This document shows, in pieces, positions 18,422 to 45,547 of a stretch of 64,000 nt of DNA. Each line of letters opens with the position of its first letter. The stretch's first letter is position 1. The notes beneath the pieces were generated by a model. The model did not search any database. It had not been told where the DNA came from and saw nothing but the letters and a program-made list of their open reading frames with translations. The stretch comes from Escherichia coli. Its GTDB lineage: Bacteria > Pseudomonadota > Gammaproteobacteria > Enterobacterales > Enterobacteriaceae. The position numbers were made by a program, and so were the translations under genes. Location: NCBI RefSeq assembly GCF_051903065.1, contig NZ_CP178438.1, one strand, 5' to 3'.

Positions 18422-19141
18422 ATCGCTGCGACAGTGGCTGATGCTGTATTCAATAGGCCGTTGCTGTTGGTCAAGCGCCACTTGCTTGATCACCAGCACC
18501 GGTATTTTGCTATCTAACTGAATATGTGACTGAAACTCGGCATCTGGCATCCGGGCGCTAACGCGGGAACGTGTACGTTGTGGGTAAATGTGCTGGCTGC
18601 GGAAATAGTCATAAAGAGAAATTCCGATGGCATCAACATCATGAATTAAATGCGCCGGAACCCACGATTCCTCAATCGATACCGCTTCTTCATCGACATA
18701 GCGAATACGCTTAAGCAAAAAGACATCACTTCCCGCTTCGACCGCAAGCTGCTGCGCGACTTCTTCGGGACATTTCACGACACGCTTGTTAACCCATAGC
18801 GTATCGGGCTTTTTCCCGCGCAATACCACCTGCTGAGAAAAACCTCGCGCTTCTTTCAACGAGTATTCGAAGATGTTGTTGATCTGCGTGCCGTAACCAC
18901 GCGAACGCGTCACCACGCCCTCTTCTTCCAGCGCCTGCATCGCCTTGCGCACCGTAATGCGCGAAACGCCGGTTAACTGACTTAAATCACGCTCACCGGG
19001 CAAAATATTGCCATGCTCCAGCACCCCGCTGCGCACGGCATTTTTTACCGTTTCGGCAAACTTAATATAAAGCGGCGTGTTATCCGCCGCTAAAATACGC
19101 TCGTTCAGTTGGGCAATCAGCTGGGTATGCGCTTGTTCCAT
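18395..19141 (-). CDS. yegW: GntR/HutC-family transcriptional regulator YegW
   Basis: 248 aa; N-terminal wHTH, UTRA-like C-terminus; 3' end overlaps yegV convergently. Confidence 0.85.
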   Translation of the reverse strand: MEQAHTQLIAQLNERILAADNTPLYIKFAETVKNAVRSGVLEHGNILPGERDLSQLTGVSRITVRKAMQALEEEGVVTRSRGYGTQINNIFEYSLKEARGFSQQVVLRGKKPDTLWVNKRVVKCPEEVAQQLAVEAGSDVFLLKRIRYVDEEAVSIEESWVPAHLIHDVDAIGISLYDYFRSQHIYPQRTRSRVSARMPDAEFQSHIQLDSKIPVLVIKQVALDQQQRPIEYSISHCRSDLYVFVCEE

Positions 19142-19192
19142 TTGTCTTTTTCCTGCCAGGGAGTCTGGTGGGAGTATATCACTGCTTCTTAT

Positions 19193-20011
19193 TTAAGGCG
19201 TTTCTTTAATCCCATCAACGAATGCCTGCAACTCCTCCACCGTGCCATTAAATACATTAAAATCCACCGGACCATTGATGCCATCTACCTGTCCACGGTC
19301 GGAATGCTGCCAGAAACGCCAGGCCATGCCGTCATTGTCCGGACGACGTTGATAGTAGTGAGCCACCCACCACGGATATTCATTGAAATAGCCCGCCAGA
19401 TTGGTGTGATAAAAAACGGCTCCTGAGTAAATAATCGGCTTTTTTCCCGTACTTTTTTCGACCATTTTTAGCCACTGACTTACCCGCTTGCGTAATTCTT
19501 TTGCCGATAATTTTCCCCGTTCCTCTACGTCCAGCACGGCAGGGAAATCGCCTTGTGAGAAATCCACCGTTTGCAGAAATAATCGCGCCTGAACAAGCGC
19601 TGCTACCGACGGGGAGAAATAATGATACGCCCCGCGCAGCAGGCCATTTTCGCGGCTTAGTTGCCAGTTACGCGAAAAATAGGGGTCCACCAGCTTTTCG
19701 CCTTCCGTCGCCTTGATAAAGGCAAATTGTAAGCGGATACCGTTATCGCGCATTTTTGCCACCCGCTGCCAGTCGATCCGCTCCTGCCAGCGCGAAACAT
19801 CTATTCCGTGAATGGTGTAACTGGCAGGAATACGAATAGCGAAAGATTTAACCGGGCGATAACCGTAGAAGTGGATGTAGTCTGTAATCTGAACTGCTGT
19901 CGAATAGAAAAAATTCACCGTCTGACGCGGATAAATTGCAACGATGGAAATTAGCCCAAGAGCGCATAATAGAGCGGTGAGTTTTTTTCGACTGGTAATT
20001 CTTAGCTGCAT
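19193..20011 (-). CDS. yegX: Glycoside hydrolase family 25 (lysozyme-like) protein YegX
   Basis: ORF 19193..20020; GH25-like core; start codon choice (MKPMQ vs MQLRI) uncertain. Confidence 0.75.
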   Translation of the reverse strand: MQLRITSRKKLTALLCALGLISIVAIYPRQTVNFFYSTAVQITDYIHFYGYRPVKSFAIRIPASYTIHGIDVSRWQERIDWQRVAKMRDNGIRLQFAFIKATEGEKLVDPYFSRNWQLSRENGLLRGAYHYFSPSVAALVQARLFLQTVDFSQGDFPAVLDVEERGKLSAKELRKRVSQWLKMVEKSTGKKPIIYSGAVFYHTNLAGYFNEYPWWVAHYYQRRPDNDGMAWRFWQHSDRGQVDGINGPVDFNVFNGTVEELQAFVDGIKETP

Positions 20012-20075
20012 TGGTTTCATCCCTGAATGTCAGTGCCAAAGGCTGACAATAACCAAAGCAGCTATAGTACGGTGC

Positions 20076-20876
20076 TCACCACCAGGCGTGGAAGTGGTGA
20101 ACCGGACCAATACCGTGACCAACTTCCAGCGTGTCGGCCTGTGCTAACGCCGATGAAAGCCAGCTTTTTGCCTCCTGTACGGTGTCAGCCCAGTTTGTAT
20201 GGCGCGGGCGTAGTGCAGCCAACGCCGCAGAGAGCGTACAACCAGTGCCGTGGGTGTTTTTGGTCATAATGCGCGGTGCAGTAAATCGTTGTTCTCCCTC
20301 ACGAGTAAACAGCCAGTCCGGGCTTTGCTCATCATCCAGATGACCACCTTTCATTAGCACTGCGCCACAGCCCATCGCCAACAGCGATCGCCCTTGTTCC
20401 AGCATTTCCTGTTCGGTGCGCACGTGTGGCGCGTCGAGCAAGGCGGCTGCTTCGGGCAAGTTTGGCGTTATTAATGAAACCTGTGGCAATAATCGACTGC
20501 GTAGCGTGGCAACTGCCGAAGGTGAAAGCAGTGGGTCGCCGCTTTTTGCCAGCATAACGGTGTCGAGTACCACGTTTTGGATCTGATAACGTTGCAACCG
20601 TTCTGCCACCGCTTCAACAATATCGGTTTCCGCCAACATACCGATTTTAGTGGTATCGATTCGCACATCGCTGAACACCGAATCGAGCTGGGCGGCGACA
20701 AAATCAGGCTCAATGCGATACACCGACTGTACGCCACGGGTATTTTGCGCCACCAGTGCAGTAATAACTGAGCAACCATAAGCGCCAAGTGCCGAGAAGG
20801 TTTTAAGATCGGCCTGAATCCCCGCACCACCACTCGGATCAGTACCGGCAATCGTCAGAGCGTTAATTCGTTTCAT
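20076..20876 (-). CDS. thiD: Hydroxymethylpyrimidine / phosphomethylpyrimidine kinase
   Basis: 266 aa; PfkB-like fold, GTGCT motif; overlaps thiM stop. Confidence 0.92.
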
Positions 20877-21661
20877 GCCTGCACCTCCTGCGTCAATTGC
20901 CAGAGCGCATCAAGGAAATGTGGAACAAAACTGCCTGGCCCCTCGCTTCTGGCGACTGCGCGTTCTCCGGCTTGTTTCATCCAGTGACAGGCAGATGCGA
21001 CATTTTCCAGCATATCGCCTGGTAACGCACAGCAGGCAGCGATAACTGCCGATAATGCACAGCCAGTTCCTACCACTTTGGCCATTAACGGATCGCCGCC
21101 GTGAATGCCAACGGTGCGACGACCATCGGTAACATAATCCACCTCGCCAGTGACCACGACGATTGCGCCAGTTTCCCGTGCCAGTGTTTGTGCAGCGGGT
21201 ATCGCGTTAGCTGCGGCGTCAGTGGTATCCACTCCCCGTCCACAATTAGCAACGCCAGCTAATGCCATGATTTCCGAAGCATTACCACGTATCGCTGCCG
21301 GTTTAAAAGATAAAAGTTCATGACAAAAATGGCGGCGATAATCGAGCGCACCAATCGCTACTGGATCAAGCGTCCAGGGGGTTTGAGAGCTTTTTGCTTG
21401 CTCAACGGCGGCACGCATCGCCTGTGCGCGTGGCTGCGTCAGCGTGCCAACGTTAATCAACAAGGCACTGGCGATAGCCGCAAACTGACTGGCCTCTTCG
21501 GTTTCGATAACCATCGCTGGCGATGCACCGAGCGCCAGCAAGGTATTGGCAGTAAAGGTTTGCACCACATCGTTGGTCATGCAGTGTACAAGAGGGGAAT
21601 GTTGGTGAAAAAGGTGTAACGTGTGCGCAGATTGCGCGGAACTCAGCAGGTCGACTTGCAT
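20873..21661 (-). CDS. thiM: Hydroxyethylthiazole kinase
   Basis: 262 aa; preceded by thi-box riboswitch. Confidence 0.92.
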
Positions 21662-21800
21662 AGTTTGCTCCTGCCATAACGTGAAGAAGCAATGACCTGG
21701 TGGTCCGTGACTTCCCTACGCTGGCATTATCCAGATCAGGTGATACGGGTATTTCTCAGCCTTCACGCAGAAGGGCACCCCGAGTCGTTTGGTTGCGATG
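21662..21800 (-). promoter_or_regulatory. TPP riboswitch (thi-box) in thiM 5' leader
   Basis: Minus-strand reads ...cggggtgcccttctgcgtgaaggctgagaaatacccgtatcacctgatctggataatgccagcgtagggaa..., the canonical E. coli thiM aptamer, followed by the SD-sequestering segment ggcaggagcaaactATG. Confidence 0.88.
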
Positions 21801-21883
21801 ATAAATCGCAGAGGAAGATGGTAATGTCCAGCGCACGCGTTGTAAACGAGGAAAAACCGCAGTTTTACAATCGCGTTAATAAA

Positions 21884-22156
21884 TTATTTGATATAAGAAT
21901 CCAGCACCTTCAGAACGACATCCAGATCTTCTTCACGCTTTAGTTCATCGCCCTGGTGAACAATGTGTTCTGTCAGATGACCTTTAATCACTTCCCGCAT
22001 CAGGCCGTTTACCGCGCCACGGATAGCAGCAATCTGTTGTAAAACTGCAGCGCATTCGTGCGGCTCGTCGAGCATTTTCTTGAGCGCCACGACCTGGCCC
22101 TGAATCTTACTGGCACGCGCTTTCAGTTTCTGTTTATCACGGATTGTATGAGACAT
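21884..22156 (-). CDS. rcnR: Ni/Co-responsive repressor RcnR (CsoR/RcnR family)
   Basis: 90 aa ([41 protein letters not shown]...). Confidence 0.92.
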
Positions 22157-22204
22157 GGCAACACCTGGTTAACAAGAATATGAAAAATCATAGCACTATT
22201 AATC

Positions 22205-22239
22205 TACTGGGGGGTAGTATCAGGTACTGGGGGGGAGTA
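22205..22239. promoter_or_regulatory. Tandem RcnR operator sites (TACT-G6/7-N-AGTA)
   Basis: tactggggggtagta (22205-22219) and tactgggggggagta (22225-22239) in the divergent rcnR-rcnA intergenic region. Confidence 0.8.
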
Positions 22240-22276
22240 GAATAAGATTGCCGAATTAATACTAAGAATTATTATC

Positions 22277-23101
22277 ATGACCGAATTTACAACTCTTCTT
22301 CAGCAAGGAAACGCCTGGTTCTTCATCCCCAGCGCCATCTTACTTGGTGCGCTTCATGGCCTGGAACCAGGGCACTCAAAAACGATGATGGCGGCGTTTA
22401 TCATCGCCATCAAAGGCACCATTAAACAGGCGGTGATGCTCGGACTGGCAGCAACCATTTCACATACTGCGGTGGTCTGGTTGATTGCCTTTGGCGGGAT
22501 GGTGATCAGCAAGCGCTTTACTGCTCAATCAGCAGAACCGTGGCTCCAGCTGATTTCCGCAGTGATCATTATTAGCACCGCGTTCTGGATGTTCTGGCGT
22601 ACCTGGCGCGGCGAACGCAACTGGCTGGAGAATATGCACGAGCATGATCATGAGCATCATCACCACGATCACGAAGATCACCAAGACCATGGACATCATC
22701 ACCATCACGAACATGGCGAGTATCAGGATGCCCATGCACGAGCCCATGCCAATGACATTAAACGACGCTTTGATGGTAGAGAGGTCACCAACTGGCAAAT
22801 TTTGCTATTTGGCTTAACCGGTGGCCTTATCCCCTGCCCGGCAGCAATTACCGTGCTGTTGATTTGCATTCAGTTGAAAGCCCTGACACTGGGCGCAACA
22901 CTGGTCGTCAGTTTCAGCATTGGCCTGGCGTTAACGCTGGTCACCGTAGGCGTTGGCGCAGCAATCAGCGTTCAGCAGGTCGCAAAACGCTGGAGCGGAT
23001 TTAACACTCTCGCTAAACGCGCCCCCTATTTTTCCAGTCTGTTGATTGGCTTAGTCGGTGTGTATATGGGCGTACATGGATTCATGGGCATAATGCGATA
23101 A
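22277..23101 (+). CDS. rcnA: Ni/Co efflux permease RcnA
   Basis: 274 aa; His-rich cytoplasmic loop (HEHDHEHHHHDHEDHQDHGHHHHHEHG). Confidence 0.92.
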   Translation: MTEFTTLLQQGNAWFFIPSAILLGALHGLEPGHSKTMMAAFIIAIKGTIKQAVMLGLAATISHTAVVWLIAFGGMVISKRFTAQSAEPWLQLISAVIIISTAFWMFWRTWRGERNWLENMHEHDHEHHHHDHEDHQDHGHHHHHEHGEYQDAHARAHANDIKRRFDGREVTNWQILLFGLTGGLIPCPAAITVLLICIQLKALTLGATLVVSFSIGLALTLVTVGVGAAISVQQVAKRWSGFNTLAKRAPYFSSLLIGLVGVYMGVHGFMGIMR

Positions 23102-23319
23102 CTCAATCCTTTAGGCTTGCATGTTATCTTCAGCCCAGGATGATTCTTAAATCAGCTATTTCCGCTGACTCTCTGCTCGATAAGGATGCTTTTAGGGCAT
23201 CCTTTCATTTACACTTTTTACGAAATCATGGGATCACTAACAAAATATCGCTTGTCAGTTATATTGTATGGCATGAAAGATATGCGACTGATATTACAGA
23301 TCCCCAAAGTGGAGAATTT

Positions 23320-23658
23320 ATGACCATTAAATATAAGATGTTGCTGGGTGCGCTTTTGCTGGTTACCAGTGCCGCCTGGGCCGCACCAGCCACCGCGGGT
23401 TCGACCAATACCTCGGGAATTTCTAAGTATGAGTTAAGCAGTTTCATTGCTGACTTTAAGCATTTCAAACCAGGGGACACCGTACCAGAAATGTACCGTA
23501 CCGATGAGTACAACATTAAGCAGTGGCAGTTGCGTAACCTGCCCGCACCTGACGCCGGAACCCACTGGACCTATATGGGTGGCGCGTACGTGTTGATCAG
23601 CGACACCGACGGTAAAATCATTAAAGCCTACGACGGTGAGATTTTTTATCATCGCTAA
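23320..23658 (+). CDS. rcnB: Periplasmic Ni/Co homeostasis protein RcnB (YohN)
   Basis: 112 aa from MTIKYKMLLGALLLVTSAAWA (signal peptide); upstream part of ORF judged spurious. Confidence 0.85.
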   Translation: MTIKYKMLLGALLLVTSAAWAAPATAGSTNTSGISKYELSSFIADFKHFKPGDTVPEMYRTDEYNIKQWQLRNLPAPDAGTHWTYMGGAYVLISDTDGKIIKAYDGEIFYHR

Positions 23659-23690
23659 AAAAAGCCCCCTCATCATGAGGGGGAAATGCA
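23656..23690. terminator. Bidirectional rho-independent terminator between rcnB and yehA
   Basis: aaaaaaagccccctcatcatgagggggaaatg: GC hairpin flanked by A-run and T-rich stretch. Confidence 0.6.
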
Positions 23691-23739
23691 GACACCTTGT
23701 TATTTTTTATTATTAGCCACTTGCTCGTCTTGCTTGTTA

Positions 23740-24774
23740 TTAGTCGTATTTCACGTTGATTAGTGCGGTTGCCTCCAGTGCGCCAGATTTAACTTTGTTT
23801 GTATCGTAGACGTAGTAACTGGCTGTTATCGGAATTGAAACCGTTGTATCTGTAAGTTTTAACTTTGCCGCAATTTCTTTTAAATTTGTGTATCCTTTAC
23901 TGCTGTTAGTGATATTTAAAAGTGTGACTGGCGAACCATTACTTTCAAGAATAAATCCTACGCCATTATCTTCCGCACCTTTCAGTATTGTGTTGCTGTT
24001 GGTTAACAAGTCAGAACTTGATAAATACACCTGCATTTTCCGTGATGTTTGATTTTGTTGACCTAATAAATTTTTACAACGCAGAATAATATCCCCTTTT
24101 TTACTATTTACTGTTGCTTTGTTACCTGTGGCTGGTAATTGTGAAACGGGAATACTCTCTAAAGTAATTAATAAATCGTCCGGTTTGCAGGTTGTGGTTA
24201 TCGGGTTGTATGACAATGTCAGATTAAAGGAATAGACACCTGCATTTTGTGCCAATGCATTTCTGTAGCTATTTACACATGCATCCCATGACTTGCCACC
24301 TAATAAACACAGTAGAAATTGTACTGCGGCACTCCCGCGTGTCGATGATGAAGCACTGGATAATGTCGCAACACCATTAATCATCACTGAACCGCCGCCC
24401 CCCGCAGAAACATTCACTTTTGCATTACTGGCCGCAGGTGTCACCGTTACCGAATAACCACTGGTGAAACTGGTCTGATTATTTGACAACGTGATGTTAT
24501 TTTTATTGGTCCATTCAAAATGTAAATTTAATTTAATAGTATCGTTATAAAGTCCAACAATAATATCCGACGGGCTCATAGGGGTGATAGTATTTGTACT
24601 TACGCATGACGAATCATTAAAATTATGCTCATAGGTCGCCATTTGTGTTTGAGTAAGTGCAAAATCCCCCTGAACAACCAAATTGTGCTGAACAGATAAC
24701 TCACTATAACATGCTGCATAGCTCACTGGCATAACCATCATCATTAATATAAATAGCATTATGCGAATTTTCAT
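23740..24774 (-). CDS. yehA: Fimbrial adhesin-like protein YehA (chaperone-usher fimbriae)
   Basis: 344 aa, signal peptide, Ser/Thr/Asn-rich; last gene of yehDCBA. Confidence 0.8.
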   Translation of the reverse strand: MKIRIMLFILMMMVMPVSYAACYSELSVQHNLVVQGDFALTQTQMATYEHNFNDSSCVSTNTITPMSPSDIIVGLYNDTIKLNLHFEWTNKNNITLSNNQTSFTSGYSVTVTPAASNAKVNVSAGGGGSVMINGVATLSSASSSTRGSAAVQFLLCLLGGKSWDACVNSYRNALAQNAGVYSFNLTLSYNPITTTCKPDDLLITLESIPVSQLPATGNKATVNSKKGDIILRCKNLLGQQNQTSRKMQVYLSSSDLLTNSNTILKGAEDNGVGFILESNGSPVTLLNITNSSKGYTNLKEIAAKLKLTDTTVSIPITASYYVYDTNKVKSGALEATALINVKYD

Positions 24775-24789
24775 AGAACCACCTGACTA

Positions 24790-27285
24790 TTACTGGCAAA
24801 TATAATTTCTACTTTCATCAATCTCTTTACCGAAGGTGATTGTGCATGAAAGTCCTTGTTGCTTATTAATTGCCACATTAACCGATGGCGGTACTTCATT
24901 GGTGCGAATAAATAACTGACTTCCCTGGCCGACAACGCCAATATTATGACCGTGGATATCATTGACTTCATAACCAAACGTTAATGGTTGCCCATCCGCT
25001 CTTAACGCTTTTATAAACCAGGGCTTGCGCTGATCGGTATCAAAATTAACCAGTACAACCGCGCCGCGATAAGGGGCGGCAATTTTCCGGTTGCCACGTA
25101 ATTCTGCTTCGCTATCGCTTTGCGACACATCCAGCATCAGGTGATTTTCCCGATAAGGTGTCATTCCGTCGTATACCACCACTCCATTACGGTTTGTTGT
25201 GCGATATTTTTGCCCATTGACATAGGCATCTTTAATTCCTGGCGCATTCATCACAGCAAACGTTTCGGAAAGACGGTTCGCCAGATTAACGCCACCCGAC
25301 CAGGCGACAATGCCCCCTGAAACACTGGCTCCAGCCTGTCGATAAGTACTCGACTGACTATAACTGCCATTCACTGTTGCCACCGGCGCGTTCCAGGTTA
25401 AATTCGCTCCAGCTGTCGTTTCATTTCCCTGATGTTGATGACTCAGGTTGACACCATAATTGAACTGTTCCCGACTCCCTACTGTTCCTGATAATCCCGT
25501 ATTATTTGAGGCAAACCCCTGATCATCAAACGTCGTTGAGTTAGACATATATATTTGCCGACGAGGCGTCGAAACGTCATCACCCCAATCAAAGGGAATC
25601 GATATAAAAATATTAAAACGTTTCTCTTCATGATGATTCTCGTCATAAGCCTGGCTTGCCGCGAGGGTATAGCTTATCCGTCGCAGGTTGTTGGAATAAC
25701 TCAACTGATAATCCTTACTACTGCCGCTACGCCCCCAGTAATCTCGCCATAACGTACTTAATGACACAGAACCCCAACCTTCTGGCAATGACTGGCTCAT
25801 ATTGGCGGAAAAGCTATTTTTGCGACCAAAATCATTCTGGTAATAATCGGCAATGTCATAGACATCGTTTTCATTACGGCGATAATTATCTTTATTGTTT
25901 GCCCAAACGTGATCATTAAATGTCCGGTAATCACGCGACGAATAACGCCAGGCCGCCAGACCAAAACGCGTCGACGTTTGGCTCACAAATTTGTTGTAGG
26001 CAATTTGATAACTTTGCCCGTCAAACACATCGCCGTTGTCTTGTTTACTATGCGACTTCGTGGCATCGACGGAAATGGCACCAATGCGTGTATTCCAGCC
26101 AGTCCCCAAAGTGAACGCGTAATAATTATTCGCGACCATCGAGCCACCATACAGCGTCAATAAGTTATTAAAACCACACTGATAACCCGCCTGGACAAAA
26201 TCACTTTGTTTGCTCGCCCCTTCAATATGGCTACGACCCGCCGCAAAATCATATTTCGACACGCCGGGTTGCAGCATATTTGGCACGGCTGCATAAGGCA
26301 CCAGATAGGTGGTTACCGAACCGTCCGCCTCTTTCACGCTGACATCAAGATCTGCTCCACCACCGGCCAACTGCAAATCTGTAATCGCAAACGGGCCAGG
26401 AGGAACCTCTTTCTGATAAACCACAAAACCATTCTGTTCAATAGTTATCAGCGCGTTACTCTGAGCAATCCCCTGCACCCGTGGCGTAAAATTTTGTTTC
26501 GAGTTAGGCAACATCTGCATATCACGAAACAACCGCACACCTCTGAAGCGAACAGAATCAAAAATATCGCTTGATGTGTACATATCACCCACGCGAAGCG
26601 TGCCGAGAAGTTGGGCAAATCCACGTTCCAGATACAGGGTATTGCTTTTCCACACCCCTGGATTGTTATTTGTTTTACTGAAACTGGCATCAGAATGCAG
26701 TTGCCACCCCAGTAAATTTAACCCGCTGTTAAAACGTACATATGTACTCTTACTATTACCCGACGCTTTATAGTCACTGTAATACTGACTCACATAATAA
26801 GAGGTATAAAACGCATTAATACCCCGCTCCCAGTTTTCCGGTGGAACATAGCCACTTTCCAGTTCTTCCACCCAGGCCTGCGGGACACTGAAATCGAGAC
26901 GAAAGACCCCGATATCCCAGGTATAGCTCCCACCCTGAACAAGTTGCTCAAATGTTAAACATTGCTTTCCACTGGCGAAGTTATCGGTGTTAATGCCTAA
27001 CCGCTTGATAATTTCCCTTGATAAACAAGTTTCTTGCGGGTTGTCTTTAACAATGATCTCATATTTCCCGCGCCATTTCTTATTGACATAAATATCGATG
27101 TCATACTGCCCCGGTAAGGGTTGATTATCATCAAGACGAATATTTGCAACCTGCTGGTCTTTCATTCCACCTATCATAAAATGGGTATCAAAGGTTTCTT
27201 CAGCTGCATAAGCTTCAATGCCGAGCAATAACGCTACGATTGCTGATGCAAGTGGGGTCATTCTCAACATAGGCAGCTCCTGCAA
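24790..27285 (-). CDS. yehB: Fimbrial outer-membrane usher YehB
   Basis: ~830 aa usher-type protein; exact start codon not resolved. Confidence 0.85.
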   Translation of the reverse strand: MQELPMLRMTPLASAIVALLLGIEAYAAEETFDTHFMIGGMKDQQVANIRLDDNQPLPGQYDIDIYVNKKWRGKYEIIVKDNPQETCLSREIIKRLGINTDNFASGKQCLTFEQLVQGGSYTWDIGVFRLDFSVPQAWVEELESGYVPPENWERGINAFYTSYYVSQYYSDYKASGNSKSTYVRFNSGLNLLGWQLHSDASFSKTNNNPGVWKSNTLYLERGFAQLLGTLRVGDMYTSSDIFDSVRFRGVRLFRDMQMLPNSKQNFTPRVQGIAQSNALITIEQNGFVVYQKEVPPGPFAITDLQLAGGGADLDVSVKEADGSVTTYLVPYAAVPNMLQPGVSKYDFAAGRSHIEGASKQSDFVQAGYQCGFNNLLTLYGGSMVANNYYAFTLGTGWNTRIGAISVDATKSHSKQDNGDVFDGQSYQIAYNKFVSQTSTRFGLAAWRYSSRDYRTFNDHVWANNKDNYRRNENDVYDIADYYQNDFGRKNSFSANMSQSLPEGWGSVSLSTLWRDYWGRSGSSKDYQLSYSNNLRRISYTLAASQAYDENHHEEKRFNIFISIPFDWGDDVSTPRRQIYMSNSTTFDDQGFASNNTGLSGTVGSREQFNYGVNLSHQHQGNETTAGANLTWNAPVATVNGSYSQSSTYRQAGASVSGGIVAWSGGVNLANRLSETFAVMNAPGIKDAYVNGQKYRTTNRNGVVVYDGMTPYRENHLMLDVSQSDSEAELRGNRKIAAPYRGAVVLVNFDTDQRKPWFIKALRADGQPLTFGYEVNDIHGHNIGVVGQGSQLFIRTNEVPPSVNVAINKQQGLSCTITFGKEIDESRNYICQ

Positions 27286-44856: not shown

Positions 44857-44936
44857 TTGGTACGAAATGTTGCACAATCAGCAAGTTAGCGTCACTGTAG
44901 TAAATAAAAGAACCTGCCTCACCAGCAGGTTTTTTT
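44857..44936 (+). ncRNA. Orz-type antitoxin sRNA (copy 1)
   Basis: Starts after the tataat box, ends at hairpin acctgcctcaccagcaggt + T7; 5' region guugguacgaaauguugc pairs over 18 nt (one G.U) with the zor 5' UTR (plus 44693-44710); ends approximate. Confidence 0.65.
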
Positions 44937-45464: not shown

Positions 45465-45547
45465 TTGGAACACGATGTTGCACAGGCTGTGGTGTTAGGC
45501 CTGAAAATAGTAAATAAAAGAACCTGCCTCACCAGCAGGTTTTTTTA
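45465..45547 (+). ncRNA. Orz-type antitoxin sRNA (copy 2)
   Basis: guuggaacacgauguugcac complementary (one mismatch) to the copy-2 zor 5' UTR; terminator acctgcctcaccagcaggt + T-run; ends approximate. Confidence 0.65.

Follow-up and report, generated by a model that had tools for sequence, protein, structure and literature searches.

The thiM TPP riboswitch in the rcnR-thiM gap of an Escherichia coli genome

On the minus strand of the window (the whole stretch of 64,000 nucleotides that was analysed), a gap of 222 bp separates rcnR from thiM, a gene of thiamine salvage. What does this gap contain, and how could it control the genes that follow? When only open reading frames are read, the gap stays unexplained, though a promoter and an RNA switch sit there. 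The initial annotation had recorded the RNA because such a reading would miss it. From a reading of the sequence, it placed an intact TPP riboswitch on the minus strand at 21662-21800, immediately upstream of thiM, with an expression platform that sequesters the Shine-Dalgarno (SD) sequence.

Identification of the element and its operon

The check proposed for this reading was a covariance-model scan with Rfam, and we ran it. When positions 19000-25000 were searched with all 4227 Rfam families, the single significant match was RF00059 (TPP riboswitch, THI element) on the minus strand. Its score of 71.2 bits is well over the curated gathering score (54.3), and the identification is borne out. 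The match is full-length (model positions 1-105 of 105) with an E value of 4.8e-13 in this 6-kb search, and it was recovered at an E value of 5.1e-12 when all 64 kb were scanned. No second RF00059 element was found in the whole 64-kb window.

The Rfam consensus pairs were mapped onto the sequence. Standard pairs were found at 21 of the 23 positions, so P1-P5 are able to form. The remaining two are C-A combinations: 21787/21708 is the outermost position of P1, and 21773/21762 is a register effect in P3 around a bulged C. In the cmscan alignment, every upper-case (highly conserved) consensus position of RF00059 is matched. The ligand-sensing motifs are also kept, namely CUGAGA in J3/2 of the pyrimidine sensor arm and ACCUGAUC..GG.UAAU.CC.GCG.AGGGAA in the pyrophosphate sensor arm. 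The aptamer lies on the same strand as thiM and in the 5′ leader of this thiamine salvage gene, with its end 35 nt upstream of the AUG. Thus, the element is a member of the family, and all defining features of RF00059 that can be tested are present. Selective binding of TPP would be expected from the identity of the element to the characterised K-12 RNA.

Public records agree with this assignment. A RefSeq/PGAP feature named TPP riboswitch is present at homologous coordinates in every uninterrupted genome that we inspected. For example, the 501-nt rcnR-thiM stretch of ECNB21-M121 is identical to that of the window, and its RefSeq TPP riboswitch is at the same position. The element is almost certainly the E. 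coli thiM TPP riboswitch, a cis-acting RNA of the 5′ leader that switches off thiMD, a salvage operon, at high levels of TPP. This riboswitch is already known and entirely ordinary, and public records already carry its annotation.

The coordinates of the locus are collected in Table 1. On the minus strand, the order is rcnR, the 222-bp gap, thiM, thiD and then yegX; rcnA is transcribed divergently from the plus strand. The start codon of thiM is at 21661-21659, and its stop codon overlaps the start of thiD. The placement immediately upstream of thiM is correct, given that the first downstream ORF matches the NCBIfam equivalog for hydroxyethylthiazole kinase over its cutoff and is followed by thiD.

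The transcription start was located from published mutations. Bastet 2017 (PMC5499598) describes an RBS mutation, G142C, and an AUG mutation, U152A, both numbered from the transcription start site. We set +1 at 21811 because only this origin makes +142 a G of GGAG and +152 the U of the AUG. The leader is then 150 nt long, and the -10 element of the sigma-70-like promoter ends 7 nt upstream of the inferred +1. With this numbering, the interval 21662-21800 needs a partial correction. It takes in the aptamer and the platform as far as the last base before the AUG. However, it cuts the 5′ hairpin (21810-21794) because the leader begins at 21811, not at 21800. Moreover, the published regulatory system runs further downstream into thiM, where the rut tract and the Rho sites lie (about 21621-21550).

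Table 1 Features of the thiM riboswitch locus (positions in the window; + numbers are counted from the inferred transcription start)
Feature	Positions	Strand	Basis or remark
rcnR	21884-22156	-	NCBIfam match over curated cutoff
Promoter of thiMD, sigma-70-like	21818-21846	-	-35 TTTACA 21846-21841, 17-nt spacer, -10 TACCAT 21823-21818; consensus scan 9/12
Leader +1 (inferred)	21811	-	Numbering of Bastet 2017 (PMC5499598)
5′ leader hairpin UGCGAU-UUAUC-AUCGCA, +2 to +18	21794-21810	-	Predicted in all folds, both free and constrained
TPP aptamer, +20 to +116	21696-21792	-	RF00059; identical to K-12
P1 closure, G+26..C+103	21786..21709	-	Within aptamer
GGGAAG (anti-anti-SD), +96 to +101	21711-21716	-	3′ strands of P4/P1 with TPP; partner of anti-SD tract without TPP
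Linker hairpin GACC-ACCA-GGUC, +107 to +118	21694-21705	-	Free-state folds
Anti-SD tract CUUCUUC, +123 to +129	21683-21689	-	Partner of GGAG if aptamer is enforced, otherwise of GGGAAG
OFF-state SD-sequestering hairpin, +120-130 with +136-147	21665-21692	-	Aptamer-enforced MFE
Shine-Dalgarno GGAG, +141 to +144	21668-21671	-	6 nt before AUG
thiM, hydroxyethylthiazole kinase (262 aa), regulated gene	20873-21661	-	NCBIfam TIGR00694 338.8 bits (cutoff 256.4) and NF006830 328.7 bits, both over cutoff
rut-like tract in early thiM, C-rich and G-poor, +191 to +225	21587-21621	-	36% C, 4% G in 25-nt windows
thiD, HMP/HMP-P kinase (266 aa), second gene of operon	20076-20876	-	NCBIfam TIGR00097 363.5 bits (cutoff 204.95)

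Several other candidates in the region were rejected. An ORF of 83 aa on the plus strand (21692-21943), which runs opposite the riboswitch and the 3′ end of rcnR, is a mechanical call that we presume to be spurious; it is unannotated in ECNB21-M121. The Hrs1 hit at 23657-23702 (23.6 bits; gathering score, 56.4) is a chance match. The mir-598 hit at 22643-22712 on the minus strand (21.7 bits; gathering score, 69) is not an RNA gene but a composition artefact of the His-rich CAT/CAC repeat in rcnA.

Elsewhere in the window, other RNAs scored over their thresholds. Two tandem matches to the OrzO-P antitoxin sRNA (RF02083) are present on the plus strand at 44863-44936 and 45471-45546, with 88.8 and 99.9 bits, respectively (gathering score, 60). 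These matches point to a zor-orz type I toxin-antitoxin pair, a locus described in O157:H7 and not known from K-12. In addition, the CyaR/RyeE sRNA (RF00112) is present at 3923-4008 on the plus strand (100.7 bits; gathering score, 47).

For the window, the value of the riboswitch lies in correct annotation only, and no open question is made testable by it. Its practical use is as a positive control: a structured RNA was recognised from raw sequence with essentially correct coordinates.

Predicted switching between two folds

We folded the leader as +1..+165, +1..+175 and +1..+200, either freely or with the Rfam aptamer pairs enforced as a mimic of the ligand-bound state. In the free minimum free energy (MFE) fold, positions +86..+104, the 3′ half of the aptamer, form a helix with +121..+140 of the platform, and this pairing includes GGGAAG (+96-101) with CUUCUU (+123-128). 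The SD sequence GGAG is unpaired in this fold. In contrast, in the aptamer-enforced MFE fold, +120-130 pairs with +136-147, so that CUUC (+123-126) pairs with GGAG (+141-144). The probability that the SD is unpaired changes from 0.22-0.65 in the free ensembles, where it varies with transcript length, to 0.002 when the aptamer is enforced. Thus, two alternative pairings of the leader were obtained in silico.

These pairings can be compared with chemical probing. In Rentmeister 2007 (PMC1920254), kethoxal/DMS probing of the TPP-free RNA showed nucleotides 83-86 paired with the anti-SD 108-111 within a helix of 71-86 with 108-125, and the SD (126-129) was reactive. After a numbering offset of 15 nt, our predicted pairings are exactly those of this model. 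The sequestration of the SD by the platform, as proposed at the outset, is supported by the constrained folding.

The enforced ensemble lies 4.8-8.2 kcal/mol above the free one, and this gap would have to be made up by the ligand together with tertiary contacts. Several results limit what equilibrium folding can show here. In the free state, equilibrium folding predicts only moderate accessibility of the SD. The fold of the whole leader has no significant stability advantage over shuffled sequences (z = -1.27). The pairing of the AUG stated in Bastet 2017 is absent from the enforced fold, in which the AUG is unpaired with a probability of 0.97-0.99. These shortfalls are no argument against the identification, and nothing contradicts it.

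The proposed mechanism is as follows. When TPP is absent, the 3′ half of the aptamer, including GGGAAG, would pair with the platform at +121..+140, including CUUCUU; GGAG would be left free and thiM would be translated. When TPP is bound, P1-P5 of the aptamer would close and reclaim GGGAAG. The released CUUC would then pair with GGAG in the hairpin of +120-130 with +136-147, and ribosome loading would be blocked. As published, early thiM RNA that is left untranslated would expose a rut site at about +200, and Rho would terminate transcription from +231 to +262, lowering the amount of thiMD mRNA. TPP binding, switching in vivo and the Rho step are expected here from the literature on the identical sequence.

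As described in PMC5499598, repression of translation exposes the rut near +200. Rho loads at about +200 and protects +201-210 (21611-21602 in the window), and termination occurs at +231, +237 and +262 (21581, 21575 and 21550, respectively). For coupling of the thiM type, a C-rich, G-poor rut tract is expected in roughly the first 34 codons. The window carries this tract, and its section +196..+224 is identical to that of K-12. Between +169 and +261 of thiM, there are six substitutions relative to K-12, including G to A at +225. This last change breaks a G-C pair of a weak hairpin predicted in K-12 at about +221-235, the folds of which are not significant. The +225 position is the wobble base of Val25; E. 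albertii, Kluyvera and others have A or T there, with no compensating change. A stem-loop next to the termination sites is the target of mutants M4/M5 in PMC5499598, and damage to a Rho-associated stem-loop by this freely varying position is unsupported.

The presence of the rut tract at +191..+225 raises the question of whether Rho termination is itself the primary output. The state of the aptamer would then expose or hide the rut directly, as proposed for ribB and mgtA, and occlusion of the SD would be incidental. In favour of this reading, thiM has a reported ChIP-based Rho termination score of 2.8, and its RNA rises about 8-fold with bicyclomycin (PMC5499598). However, the rut tract lies 40-75 nt within the ORF, outside all predicted helices of the riboswitch. 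Furthermore, mutation of the RBS or the AUG alone lowers the mRNA whatever the TPP state, and in fusions that keep no more than six codons, the mRNA is no longer regulated (PMC5499598). Because the RBS and AUG mutants and the six-codon fusions behave in this way, we place Rho downstream of translational control, and we regard a direct action of the aptamer on Rho as very unlikely.

A second possibility is that the main mode is attenuation of transcription by an intrinsic terminator and antiterminator in the leader, instead of hiding of the ribosome binding site. Bacillus-type TPP riboswitches, and many others from Gram-positive bacteria, possess such a terminator/antiterminator platform. The drop of thiM mRNA on addition of TPP (PMC5499598) also fits this mode. 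However, no intrinsic terminator (stem plus U-tract) is present on the minus strand of 21500-22300, and the platform is without a U-run. The sole strong alternative helices involve the SD. In addition, the published drop in mRNA has been ascribed to Rho acting within the coding region after the translation block (PMC5499598). We therefore class the platform as translational, since the minus strand of 21500-22300 has no terminator-like site; attenuation by the leader is extremely improbable.

Variation of the leader among Enterobacterales and E. coli strains

To compare the translational switch with those of other species, we used a degenerate pattern on the invariant aptamer core and collected 120 loci from a species-representative genome collection. 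In 79 of the 120 loci, a thiM homologue (56-89% protein identity) starts 47-56 nt past the core; 78 thiM leaders were non-redundant and usable. The same aptamer-to-thiM architecture is thus found in 78 other enterobacterial species. Leaders from Citrobacter, Enterobacter, Kosakonia, Pantoea, Erwinia, Serratia, Pectobacterium and other genera share the short-P3a core, the CUUC(UU) tract and the GGAG SD. A GGAG-type SD is present in all leaders, and a CUUC tract is located upstream of it in 77/79.

The pairings of both predicted states are preserved in these leaders. The ON pairing GGGAAG:CUUCUU is standard in 74-77 of the 77 enterobacterial thiM leaders; for the OFF core CUUC:GGAG, the corresponding figure is 76-79 of 79. 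Constraint on both the SD and GGGAAG leaves the OFF core no room to vary. In the outward extension of the OFF helix, we found one compensatory switch, UUG..CAA (8 leaders of the Escherichia type) versus UCG..CGA (11 of the Enterobacter type). The aptamer pairs were invariant in this sample, partly because the retrieval pattern had fixed most of the paired bases, and are thus uninformative for covariation here; the proper covariation test for the aptamer is the Rfam model.

Other parts of the platform differ from those of E. coli. The linker hairpin and the sequestering helix are different in other Enterobacterales, and only about 20 of 77 leaders extend CUUC:GGAG as E. coli does. Equivalents of the linker hairpin are found in other genera with different stems, for example GAUGCC...GGCAUC and GACAC...GUGUC. 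In two-state folding of the 79 species, the closed aptamer clearly hides the SD in 24. Over all 79 species, hiding of the SD by the closed aptamer was no better than with shuffled platforms (Wilcoxon p = 0.31). These two results suggest that many genera use another sequestering helix or rely on kinetics. We claim cross-species thermodynamic support only for the Escherichia/Kluyvera/Enterobacter-type subset.

In many non-Escherichia leaders (Kosakonia, Cedecea, Enterobacter, Siccibacter and others), the linker that follows P1, for example CCUGCCCGGC, is perfectly complementary to a segment adjoining the SD, GCCGGGCAGG. Equilibrium folding predicts the GC-rich helix that this linker makes with the 5′ side of the SD whether the aptamer is closed or not. 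The same linker also folds into the local hairpin GAUGCC...GGCAUC, which stacks on GGGAAG:CUUCUU. This arrangement suggests that these leaders may work as a three-way switch distinct from the E. coli platform, which equilibrium folding does not resolve.

Within E. coli, a 501-nt query around the element matched 5424 of 5426 complete genomes, which marks the window as E. coli chromosome. At 99% identity or more, the 139-nt element was retained in 4367 of the 5424, versus 370 of the 5424 for the 501-nt region with its rcnR and thiM flanks. Judged by these counts, the element is more strongly constrained than the neighbouring protein-coding sequence.

In some E. coli strains, the leader is interrupted; 87 genomes have no uninterrupted copy of the element. 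In NRZ105822, an element of about 15 kb separates rcnR from thiM. It has genes for a tyrosine integrase, a primase, an SSB, a major capsid protein, a prohead protease, a portal protein, a connector, an HNH protein, and the small and large terminase subunits; no tail genes are present in this 15-kb element. Its gene content is satellite- or cf-PICI-like. A 14-nt direct repeat, AGAAATACCCGTAT, flanks the element and corresponds to +56..+69 of the leader (21756-21743 on the minus strand of the window). The aptamer of NRZ105822 is thereby split; the thiM-proximal copy scores 35.1 bits, below the threshold, and bears no PGAP riboswitch annotation.

A second type of insertion was observed in an ExPEC strain from a mussel, in which a partial integrase and then IS3 follow directly after +96 (junction +96/+97, window 21716/21715). 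This integrase is unrelated to that of NRZ105822 (BLASTP E = 0.41). Since two unrelated integrases are found at different junctions, at least two integrases appear to target different points of one aptamer. A 41-nt att core (+56..+96), which had been joined from the two strains, is wrong: the repeat within one genome is the 14 nt of +56..+69, and the +96 junction belongs to the unrelated integrase.

A third type was found in O157:H7 Z887 and in a canine strain, where about 2.3 kb replaces -74..+16 (window 21885-21796; junction +16/+17, 21796/21795). The replacement carries an outer-membrane protein gene, an HTH-like gene and hypothetical genes. It removes the native thiM promoter, the transcription start site and half of the 5′ hairpin, and the aptamer is intact. 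Because the native promoter is lost, thiMD must be transcribed from elsewhere in these strains.

The aptamer may therefore have a second role. Whether it doubles as a chromosomal attachment site, which would be unoccupied in the window (21756-21743), seems to us evenly balanced. A search for the att core among 50,697 phage records gave no match, and no paper naming both thiM and PICI/satellite integration was among the top literature matches. If the idea is true, insertion cuts thiMD off from its promoter and abolishes TPP sensing, and mobile elements would recurrently rewire the regulation of thiamine salvage. The mobile elements at the aptamer are of possible interest for work on phage satellites and riboswitch evolution; they are not a property of the window.

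Broken copies such as that of NRZ105822 are the one point in favour of reading the window's element as a decayed relic, an aptamer-like sequence with its regulation lost, and the window itself lends this reading no support: its probability is practically negligible, given the full-length match over the gathering score, the uninterrupted arrangement from promoter to thiM and the conservation above that of the flanks across 5424 genomes, and it is refuted because the leader, with 0 differences from the functional K-12 leader, is identical to a functional allele.

Comparison with known riboswitches of E. coli

The closest known system is the thiM riboswitch of K-12 MG1655. The window is identical to it at each base from -4 to +167 (21815-21645), which comprises the 150-nt leader, the AUG and the first five codons. 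The native promoter region is uninterrupted, unlike that of some other E. coli genomes, and the description of the element as intact is thus correct. The context in K-12 is also the same (rcnA / rcnR / thiM-thiD-yegX). The window differs from K-12 at 21816 (T in place of C; -5, between the -10 element and +1) and at 21858 (G in place of C; -47). No other position of the rcnR-thiM intergenic region differs between the two, and ECNB21-M121 shares both changes with the window. The polymorphisms, all outside the switch, look neutral. The K-12 thiM RNA has been reported to bind TPP, and the complex of the aptamer with TPP has been crystallised (PMC1920254).

The riboswitches of E. coli thiC (thiCEFSGH) and thiB/tbpA, neither of which is in the window, belong to the same aptamer family but are at other loci and have other expression platforms. 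Both of them have also been reported to be coupled to Rho, with Rho scores of 12 and 3.0, respectively (PMC5499598).
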